Shown one piece after another: positions 18,001 through 21,000 of a stretch of DNA of 38,125 bases; the first letter of the stretch is position 1; each line of letters begins with the position of its first letter. The stretch spans positions 1 to 38,125 of the forward strand of contig JACPID010000005.1 of NCBI GenBank assembly GCA_016188265.1, written 5' to 3'. Position numbers: made by a program. The stretch is from Candidatus Woesearchaeota archaeon. GTDB taxonomy: Archaea; Nanobdellota; Nanobdellia; Woesearchaeales; ARS49.

Positions 18001-21000
18001 CATTCGCTAAAACCTCCCTCTATCAAGTGATCCATGACTTGCAAGTTTCTGAAAGCTTTGAGTAAGTGAGCATTTGCTTTGTGAATATCTTTACTGGTTT
18101 TCTTTAATCCTCTGTGTCTTTCTCCTTCTTTTTCTGCTTTTTTCAAGCACCATTGAACTTTATTGTCTATTACTGACATTTGCTTATTCCCTCTAAAATG
18201 ATTTCCTGGCCTGAAAGCAAAGCACCATTTCTGATAATATCCAGAAGTACTGGATCTTTATTTTTAAGGTTTTTCACTAAATCTTCAAAAGTTTGAACAA
18301 CTAACTGTAATTTTTTTGATGAGGTCTTCTGTAATTCTTGAATTTCTTTGCGTAATTTTTCATAATTTTGCTTCTTTATTACACAAAAAACATCAATATC
18401 ATTAGCATTGATGCCTTTAGTAAGGACAGAACCAAAAAGAATAACACAATCAGCCAATCCTTGAAGTTTTTTCAAATCTTCTGCACAAACTTTAGCAAAA
18501 GAATTTAACTCGTTTTGTGAAAAAACAAACTCAGCACTTTTTCTAGCTATTTGCTCTTGAAAATTAAGCTTATAATACTTCGCCTGCCCTATGCTTTCAA
18601 AAACTAAAATCTTTTGTTTTTCAAGCTTTCTAAGAATTTTATAAGCACCCATTGGAGACAAATTTAGCTTTTTAGCTACTTCATTCATACTAATGCGTTC
18701 ACTCCAGTTTCTAGCTAAAAAATTAATAACTTTAGATTCATTCTCAGTTAACGAAAACATACTTCATACCTCAAGTATATAACTATATACTACAAGTATA
18801 TAAATCTTTCAGTTCACAGACTAGCATTTTTAGAAATTGCGTCAAATTGACAAAACGCTCAAAATTTTAGAAAACGAAACTATTGTCCTATAATTTATTT
18901 CGTTTTCTATTATATAACTTATCAGAATATATTTTGTTCTATCAAAATTTATTTAAATGCAAACATACTCTAGTATTTAATAGAGAAATATAACCACAAC
19001 ATATAGTGTTTTTATGATGTTACTCTTAAGTGGAGTAAAGTAAATGAGGTGAATGTTTTGAGATGCCCTTACTGTCTTCATGAAGAAACAAAAGTTTTGG
19101 ATTCAAGAGTTACTCCAGAACAAGATTCTGTTCGTAGAAGAAGAGAATGTGAAGATTGTTCAAAAAGATTCACAACATATGAGCGTATTGAAGTAAACAA
19201 TATTTCAGTTGTTAAAAAAGATGGTAGAAGAGAGCCTTTTGATAGGGAAAAATTATTGAGAGGAATGCTAAAAGCTTGTGAGAAACGCCCTGTTAAAAGA
19301 GAGCACATTGAAGAGATTGTTGATCAAATTCAAGCGCATTTATTGAAGCTGGACCAGCATGAGATTAAAAGTAAAAAAATAGGAGAGCTTATAATGGATT
19401 CACTAAAAGATCTTGATGATGTTGCTTATGTTCGTTTTGCATCTGTATATAGGCGTTTCAAAGATGCAAACCAGTTCACTAATACAGTAAACATGTTGCA
19501 AAAAATGAAGAATAGGTGAATGAAATGGAGTTGACTTTAGAAAAACAAGAAAGCAAAGATGTTGCAATGCTTAGAGAACAGGAAGTTTTTTTAAGTGATC
19601 AAGCAATTCATGTGTTAAACGGTTCGACGCAGTTTGATGAATTAGGTCGCATGATTTTTTTAGATCGTTATGCACTGAAAGCAAAACGCGACACTATTAA
19701 TGAGGGAGATCTTGTAATTACTATAACACTTGAAGATCCTAAATATCCTAAAAAAGATCTTGGAATTGTAGTTAATATATCAGAAAATTATATTGCTACT
19801 CTTCATATGGTTACAGGAAAGTATTCTTGTTCTGAAGAAAATTATACTTTTAAACAATCTGTTTGGAAATGCAGCAAGCCTCTTGAATCAATTGATGATG
19901 CTTACAAGCGTGTAGCCAGAGCAGTAGCTTCTGTCGAAAATAGTTCTGAAAAGCAAACACAATTGTTCCAAGAATTTTATGAGGAGCTTTCAACAAAGCG
20001 CATTCAGCCGGCAGGAAGAATAATGACTGGTGCAAATGTTAATGATGAAAAACATTATACTTCTAATCTAACTTTATACAATTGTTATGTTATTCCCTGC
20101 CCAAAAGACAGCAGAACAGGCATTGTTGAAACACTTAAGCAAATGATTGAAATAATGTCAAGAGGCGGAGGAGTTGGTATTTCTCTTGCATCATTAAGGC
20201 CAAAATATGCTTATGTGCAGGGAGTTCATGGACAATCTTCTGGTTCAGTATCATGGGGAGGTTTGTACTCATTTGCAACAGGTCTTGTTGAACAAGGCGG
20301 ATCAAGAAGAGGGGCGCTTATGCTTATGCAGGCAGATTGGCATCCTGATGTTCTTGAGTTTATTACTGCAAAGACAAAAATGGGAAATATAGAAAATGCA
20401 AATATTTCTGTTATGGTTTCAGATCGTTTTATGGAATCATTGAAAAAAGATGATGATTGGAACTTAGAATTTCCTGATTATGAATTTCCAGGCTATAAAG
20501 AAATTTACCAAAAAGAGTGGAATGGAGATCTTAAAGCTTGGAAAGAAAAAGGATACCCTATTAGGATATATAAAACAATTAAAGCTAGAGAATTATGGGA
20601 CTTGCTTATAACTTCTGCCTGGAGAAGCGCTGAGCCAGGAGTTGTGTTTATGGAAAGGTATAACAAACTGAGCAATAGTTATTATTTTAATCCTATAATT
20701 TGTACAAATCCTTGTGGTGAACAAGGATTGCCTGGTTGGGGTGTATGTAATTTAGGGCATTTATACTTAGGTGCTTTTGCAAAAAAAAAAAGGTGAAGAT
20801 GAACAAGGGCCTGTTTACGAGCTTGATTGGGAGCAGTTAAAAAAATCTTCACAAAGACTTACAAGATTTCTTGATAATGTCATTGATTTAACGCCTTATT
20901 TTTTTGAAGAAAATAGAAATAATCAAAAAGCAGAAAGGCGTGTTGGCGGGGGGACTCTTGGTTTAGGGGAGTTATTAATAAAATTACGTGTCAAATACGG

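Follow-up and report, generated by a model that had tools for sequence, protein, structure and literature searches.

NrdR is usually presented as a bacteria-specific regulator, and passages in the literature (papers are cited here and below for individual passages) state that the NrdR box is absent in archaea (a 2014 review; PMC4009431) or that NrdR is without archaeal orthologues (a 2025 preprint; bioRxiv 2025.03.28.645925). Archaeal nrdR genes are also on record, with 6 entries in 2009 (PMC2795772), haloarchaeal nrdR operons reported in 2010 (PMC3019208) and nrdR in 22% of archaeal genomes in 2026 (PMC13584703). An nrdR gene followed by two reductase genes in a Candidatus Woesearchaeota genome (GCA_016188265.1) raises the question of whether the tandem operator that NrdR uses in bacteria can sit, and work, on an archaeal promoter. 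The DNA analysed here, called the window, comprises positions 1 to 38,125 of contig JACPID010000005.1; an earlier note on it had described a bacterial NrdR with tandem boxes 31-33 nt apart behind an archaeal TATA box. We find that this layout is real and well supported by comparative evidence, as an expected extension of a known regulator. It is highly probable that the window holds a working NrdR operator on an archaeal promoter, which NrdR would bind and repress.

Surveys of NrdR boxes published in 2025 and 2026 covered bacterial genomes only (PMC12051234, PMC13584703). A box profile of 2022 was run on species-representative genomes with the aim of reaching more bacterial phyla (PMC9110341), and archaeal matches may be among its 935 sequences. 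The earlier note had warned that supplements might list archaeal boxes; the text supplements of three NrdR papers list none. The literature that we searched, mostly outside subscription papers, yielded no account of archaeal NrdR operators, nothing on NrdR in DPANN archaea and, judged by title, nothing on the regulation of ribonucleotide reductase in Woesearchaeota. A promoter that combines BRE-TATA with an NrdR box pair is apparently undescribed.

The nrdR operon of the window

The first gene of the cluster encodes a protein with a Zn ribbon (PF22811 at residues 1-42) and then an ATP-cone (PF03477 at 50-136), which matches solved PDB NrdR chains (E=1.5e-41). Alignment with these chains places the two CxxC motifs of the Zn ribbon at C3/C6 and C31/C34 and shows that D15, R17, R26-29 and R37 are kept, as are K53, K76 and Y131 (E. 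coli numbering). Of these, D15, R17, R26-29 and R37 are the DNA contacts of Streptomyces coelicolor NrdR (PMC9110341), and K53 and K76 belong to the nucleotide site of E. coli NrdR (PMC12176259). Across archaeal NrdRs, R17 is found in 133/135 and D or E at position 15 also in 133/135, counted on the 135 pattern-parseable sequences of 154 proteins.

Table 1. Features of the nrdR promoter and operon in the window.
Feature	Position	Strand	Remarks
TATA-anchored upstream element	18924..18935	+	AAnnTATAT[T/G]TT type; from nrdR promoters aligned on TATA
BRE (TFB recognition element)	18943..18947	+	CAAAA; de novo BRE-TATA motif of the genome; best site of the region
TATA box	18950..18957	+	TATTTAAA; genome BRE-TATA motif; best site of the region is 18943-18957
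NrdR box 1, degenerate	18961..18976	+	C4, T9, T11, G13 kept; A6>T, A8>C
Predicted transcription start	18979..18981	+	inside the 17-nt linker; predicted from TATA spacing
NrdR box 2, consensus	18994..19009	+	C4, A6, A8, T9, T11, G13 all present
Shine-Dalgarno-like GAGGTGA	19046..19052	+	5 nt 5' of the nrdR TTG start; read from the sequence
nrdR	19058..19519	+	153 aa; Zn ribbon and ATP-cone; TTG start; TIGR00244 206 bits over the whole protein (curated cut-off 124.65)
nrdJ-1, class II reductase without ATP-cone	19516..21778	+	split in the assembly at an 11-A run, 20781-20791
nrdJ-2, class II reductase with N-terminal ATP-cone	21821..23842	+	TIGR02504 640 bits (cut-off 399.95); Pfam

Two class II reductase genes follow (Table 1), as expected for the nrdR-nrdJ-nrdJ cluster first proposed. 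The halves of nrdJ-1 match positions 39-291 and 507-855 of PRK08115. At the break, contigs from 4/4 public runs (all of one study, three of them possibly the source of the window's own DNA) are one base, an A, shorter at 20781, and the frame closes. Since these four other assemblies lack the extra base, the frameshift is an assembly error, as had been suspected, and we reject a programmed frameshift or a pseudogene. The genome holds a third nrdJ elsewhere (G000:C3:1572-3695), 50% identical to nrdJ-2 and followed by a gene that by eye resembles a cob(I)alamin adenosyltransferase; a search for class III reductase gave zero matches over the cut-off in this genome. Upstream of the promoter, at 18866-18912, lies a 47-bp hairpin repeat with 11-bp arms, REP- or MITE-like, with about 15 more copies at 90-98% identity on 8 contigs. 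Beyond it, on the minus strand at 17871-18760, is a divergent gene pair consisting of a winged-helix and nucleotidyltransferase gene and a 102-aa gene without a Pfam match, which resembles an MNT-HEPN toxin-antitoxin pair.

An archaeal promoter with a probable tandem operator

To describe the promoter we derived a BRE-TATA matrix from 385 other operon heads and 22 tRNA upstream regions of the same genome, the motif being present in about 68% of these training regions. Upstream of nrdR an A-rich BRE stands beside a TTTAWAWA-type box, and the genome, 98% complete, encodes TBP and TFB. A sigma-70 promoter was considered and rejected, as sigma-70 region 2 was not found in this 98% complete genome. 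In 71/173 of its promoters the start codon lies 20-24 nt after the end of the TATA box, with a peak of A at 23-24 nt; reading these as leaderless, we infer a transcription start near 18980 in the linker between the two boxes. Relative to this start, box 1 would extend from about -19 to -4 and box 2 from about +15 to +30, so that the boxes would spare BRE-TATA and cover the predicted start site. Among reductase loci L211-L290, the median distance from TATA to start codon is 110 nt where the genome bears nrdR and 53 nt in the other genomes, the genome-wide mode in the window's genome being 20-24 nt.

The downstream box is the consensus box pointed out earlier, with all six positions named in PMC13584703, and the degenerate partner claimed for it is also present, starting 33 nt upstream across a linker of 17 bp. 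Over the 924 kb of the genome, no single site outscores box 2 (22.0 bits; next 14.4) and no pair outscores that of the window (18.6; next 9.9), in a ranking by a matrix for which this locus was among the training loci. The statement that this was the sole intergenic box genome-wide holds only in a narrower form: three intergenic single boxes reach 10 bits, and it is the one in the window alone that has a partner and a pair score above 10.

Box 1 itself scores -3.4 bits and, with a C at position 8, fails the published search pattern (A or T at positions 6, 8, 9 and 11). One might suppose that the system is real in the lineage and decaying in this genome, so that box 1 no longer binds and repression is weak or lost. 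NrdR requires both boxes (PMC13584703), box 1 departs at two positions, and the spacing is 33 nt where five relatives have 32; in the leader of the third nrdJ, moreover, G13 is missing from both of two box-like sites, which are spaced 32 nt apart and come 14 nt after a TATA-like site. We nevertheless regard such decay as improbable. A weak box 1 is family-wide, and in 5/5 other aligned family members it keeps C4 and G13 and stands 32 nt before a strong box 2, which answers the caveat that the first box is degenerate. Positions 8-9 are not essential for binding, A6>T is tolerated in vitro, as is a changed middle pair, and the core of box 1, with 6/8 A/T, is above the 63% limit (PMC13584703). 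Both 16-bp boxes of the window carry C4 and G13, and box 2 and the NrdR protein are intact. The 17-bp linker is within the range of 14-17 (or 24-27) bp, at the edge of what works, and a linker of 15-17 bp represses in vivo (PMC12051234). The two sites before the third nrdJ could be read as a relic or as a weak operator. In bacteria NrdR covers all reductase operons, a rule from which a third nrdJ without an intact box departs.

The nrdR promoters aligned on TATA also share an element just upstream of BRE (Table 1). At a threshold of >=4 it is found in 8/216 generic promoters (of the window's genome only), in 15/34 reductase promoters from genomes with nrdR vs 11/29 from genomes without detected nrdR and, out of sample, in 9/17 sister-order and other loci and 0/4 Asgard loci. 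We rejected the idea that it is a third NrdR box, as it is fixed to TATA and not to box 1 and occurs in those 11/29 promoters. The element is enriched in reductase promoters whether or not nrdR is there, is independent of NrdR and is a candidate site for a second regulator.

Boxes track nrdR across Woesearchaeales

We also asked whether the boxes occur where the repressor does. In the order Woesearchaeales, nrdR is over the cut-off in 304/401 genomes (15 unpublished genomes enter this tally only), in agreement with the 114/151 of the earlier note. Of the best 150 matches listed we used 130 nrdR loci, leaving out 10 unpublished ones, 1 without upstream DNA and 9 others; 1 further locus was dropped for want of upstream DNA, which left 129 upstream regions. 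De novo EM on these regions ranked aCACaAnATnTtGTGT, the NrdR box, first among motifs at each of three widths. In this training sample a box of >=10 bits lies upstream of nrdR at 41/45 loci with a class I/II reductase next and at 29/30 with nrdD next or fused, vs 8/54 without a reductase next, and shuffles yield <=0.6 loci. The published bacterial pair pattern, which is independent of the matrix trained here, is found at 23/45, 20/30 and 4/54 of these loci, respectively (shuffles 3.05, 1.25 and 2.85). At loci without a reductase next, the gene after nrdR is often AAA_17/18 kinase-like (in one case fused to dCMP deaminase) or encodes a dUTPase or a corrinoid adenosyltransferase (L027, L038, L047, L055, L060, L068, L089, L098, L100; L093, L127; L010, L075).

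For an out-of-sample set we drew on 40 nrdR-bearing genomes (45/54 with a match), which supplied 40 reductase loci without nrdR in front of them, with a control of 40 loci from 38 genomes without detected nrdR (55/75 with a match), one of which was dropped because its operon head lay at a contig end. Both sets were made up of operons other than class III operons away from nrdR. A box is found no more than 300 nt from the gene or operon head at 33/40 loci in the nrdR-bearing genomes, being absent at the other 7/40, vs 1/39 in genomes without detected nrdR; these counts overstate independence, since the genomes are related and incomplete. In the one box-bearing genome of the control nrdR may be unassembled, because the three other sampled members of its family carry nrdR. 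Families f14, f21, f60, f89, f123 and f131 mix both kinds of genome, and boxes track nrdR in each. With the looser published pattern the contrast narrows to 20/40 vs 6/40. An operator before reductase operons thus goes with nrdR, with the third nrdJ of the window's genome as the exception. The partner box is offset by 32 nt in 25 of 36 out-of-sample loci, by 31 in 4, by 33 in 3 and by 29 and 57 in one each. The tandem boxes 31-33 nt apart behind an archaeal TATA box have therefore withstood four times more nrdR loci and a presence/absence test out of sample.

These results bear on the simplest alternative, namely that AT-rich DNA yields palindromes and TATA-like words by chance. In favour of such an account, the genome has 31% G+C and contains the six-position core of the box 279 times. 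Yet shuffles give <=0.6 of 45 loci, boxes are gone where nrdR was not found at similar G+C, the spacing is sharp at 31-33 nt, and boxes also occur in loci of 55-63% G+C. Chance is refuted for the lineage by the out-of-sample test, and as an account of the window we give it virtually no weight.

How NrdR would repress

We picture a promoter on which TBP and TFB would bind BRE-TATA (18943-18957), with transcription beginning near 18980. On a rise in dATP, NrdR loaded with ATP and dATP would form a tetramer, its two Zn-ribbon dimers would sit on boxes 1 and 2, which are separated by three helical turns, and the DNA would be bent across the start site. RNA polymerase could then be neither loaded nor able to open the DNA, and nrdR and both nrdJ genes would be shut off in an autoregulatory loop. 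What the sequences show are the two sites with their spacing and their place after TATA, their occurrence together with nrdR, and a protein whose contact residues for DNA and nucleotide are intact. Nucleotide sensing, with DNA bound only when both ATP and dATP are present, the switch between tetramer and dodecamer, and the bend are taken from bacterial NrdR and would apply here by analogy. The step blocked is probably polymerase loading and not TBP/TFB binding, in the manner of LrpA-type repressors (PMC5569661).

The position of TATA relative to the boxes speaks to this last point. The end of the best TATA falls 0-30 nt upstream of box 1 in 64/71 pairs and in 43/49 out-of-sample pairs (chance expectation for the latter, about 8/49 within 0-40 nt), and in 120 pairs no TATA of >=8 bits ends inside the pair. 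The gaps are mostly 6-20 nt, and box 1 would then cover or immediately precede the start site. NrdR could instead bind and repress at another step, by hindering TBP/TFB or, where both boxes lie past the start, as a roadblock to early elongation. In the window, box 1 begins only 3 nt past the TATA end, outside the 10-30 nt that the earlier note gave for strict pairs at other loci, and the DNA would be sharply bent; gaps of 3-4 nt recur in 7/71 pairs, the window's family included, with TATA 3-4 nt before box 1 in 4/5 other family members with a pair. Gaps of 24-30 nt would place both boxes in the transcript, and at 4 loci BRE-TATA is flanked by a further full box located 57 nt upstream of box 1. 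Against another step stand the 0/120 pairs with a strong TATA ending inside and the prevailing gaps of 6-20 nt, and we think it rather unlikely, preferring a block at polymerase loading. Strict helical phasing of the gap between TATA and box is not upheld and remains a hint: at 10.5 bp, R is 0.47 for the first set and 0.40 for the out-of-sample pairs, among which gaps of 21-26 nt do occur.

Reach beyond the order and origin

The layout is not confined to Woesearchaeales, where the earlier note had rightly placed it. In a sample of the phylum the NrdR Zn ribbon occurs in 233/301 genomes (a tally with 2 unpublished ones), of which 65 belong to other orders of the class, and 16/18 of the loci fetched from these other orders have a box pair. 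In the phylum of a Heimdallarchaeota genome NrdR is present in 5/201 genomes, 4 of them with a pair 31 nt apart and 25-26 nt after TATA. The haloarchaeal plasmid nrdR operons L291-L297 have, in 7/7, a pair 29-30 nt apart and 10-11 nt after a TATA-like site; these seven promoters are homologous and therefore count as one event.

The NrdR of the window is 48-59% identical to the bacterial NrdRs retrieved and 58-68% identical to the best 120 database proteins, of which 7/9 with an organism name are labelled Woesearchaeota; these values replace the 56-61% to bacterial NrdR given earlier. In a quick unrooted tree of 129 proteins (62 rows of the order and a biased bacterial sample, most near-identical Sphingopyxis and Faecousia rows and two Zn-ribbon fusions being left out), a branch with SH-aLRT 91 separates all Nanobdellia rows, together with four Asgard, two unclassified archaeal and one Spirochaetales row, from the rest, and haloarchaeal NrdR falls among the bacterial rows. 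A recent transfer from a bacterium is not supported, these NrdRs appearing apart from most bacterial ones; because support is moderate, the bacterial sample biased and the tree unrooted, we limit the conclusion on Nanobdellia NrdR to no recent import. While the tandem layout stands, the word "bacterial" for NrdR and operator was an overstatement, since the NrdRs of this group make up a side of the tree by themselves and a transfer could have gone either way. An nrdR-nrdD locus labelled Spirochaetales (L131) groups with the archaeal NrdRs, and its box directly follows a -10-like element; an archaea-to-bacteria transfer or a tree error are both possible.

Fusions of NrdR with NrdD

In several related genomes the Zn ribbon is fused straight to the ATP-cone of NrdD itself (L318/L338, L322/L336, L324, L325, L327, L329, L331, L333, L337, L343, L345; 2 checked with Pfam, 9 judged by their sequence). 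At 11/11 of these fusion loci there are two boxes 30-32 nt apart, with a single Zn-ribbon match per genome. At least 74 database clusters combine ribbon, cone and reductase (74/120 among the matches listed), 3 of them with a class I/II barrel. Whole NrdR is fused to NrdD, in frames of 804-875 aa, at L074, L088, L114, L123, L321, L330 and L332 and in the Heimdallarchaeota loci L141, L157 and L301; at L114, L123 and L332 the boxes form a proximal pair, spaced by 41 nt, and an upstream pair, spaced by 32 nt. Our literature search found no description of NrdR-NrdD fusions. The main claim depends neither on these fusions nor on the TATA-anchored upstream element.

Taken together, we tentatively propose a broader scheme, which as a whole is less likely than not. 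Reductase promoters of Nanobdellia would be under dual control, with a factor on the TATA-anchored element just upstream of BRE, an element present with or without NrdR, and NrdR wrapping the start without displacing TBP/TFB. The module would be old in these archaea and would have been fitted to archaeal promoters at least twice, in Nanobdellia/Heimdallarchaeota and in haloarchaea. In several families it would have been reduced to the enzyme itself, with the Zn ribbon joined to NrdD, the boxes kept and free nrdR not found, so the reductase might repress its own gene.

Comparison with known systems

The closest known counterpart is the nrdRJ operon of S. coelicolor (PDB 7P37/7P3F; PMC9110341), where nrdR likewise heads a class II reductase operon and the operator consists of two 16-bp boxes three turns apart with the same consensus, D15, R17 and the arginine run being kept. 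The window differs from it in its promoter, a BRE-TATA for TBP/TFB, with the boxes wholly downstream of the recognition elements. Bacterial NrdR boxes often overlap -35/-10 (bioRxiv 2025.03.28.645925), an overlap that we also see in the bacterial loci L160, L188 and L210. Our data show one operator relocated, with the -35/-10 region exchanged for the DNA that follows TATA, and they define a predicted dNTP-sensing regulon for uncultured DPANN archaea.

None of this is a surprise in kind, as archaeal nrdR was known and bacterial-type repressors on archaeal promoters are the rule. NrpR is shared with bacteria and has tandem operators. Mdr1, LrpA, Phr and NrpR are alike in being bacterial-type regulators that occlude TBP/TFB or prevent polymerase recruitment (PMC5569661), the latter in the case of LrpA going by the title of a paper cited there. 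They differ in DNA-binding fold and signal, and the passages on them describe none as a dNTP sensor (PMC5569661).

The haloarchaeal nrdR-nrdAB operons, on record since 2009-2010 (PMC3019208), resemble the window in that a reductase operon begins with an archaeal nrdR, and differ in their spacing, their class I reductase and the place of their NrdRs among the bacterial ones. Section 6 of that paper, on the haloarchaeal operons, does not describe boxes (PMC3019208). These copies allow tests in culturable hosts. Their pair spacing of 29-30 nt is shorter than the bacterial 31-32.
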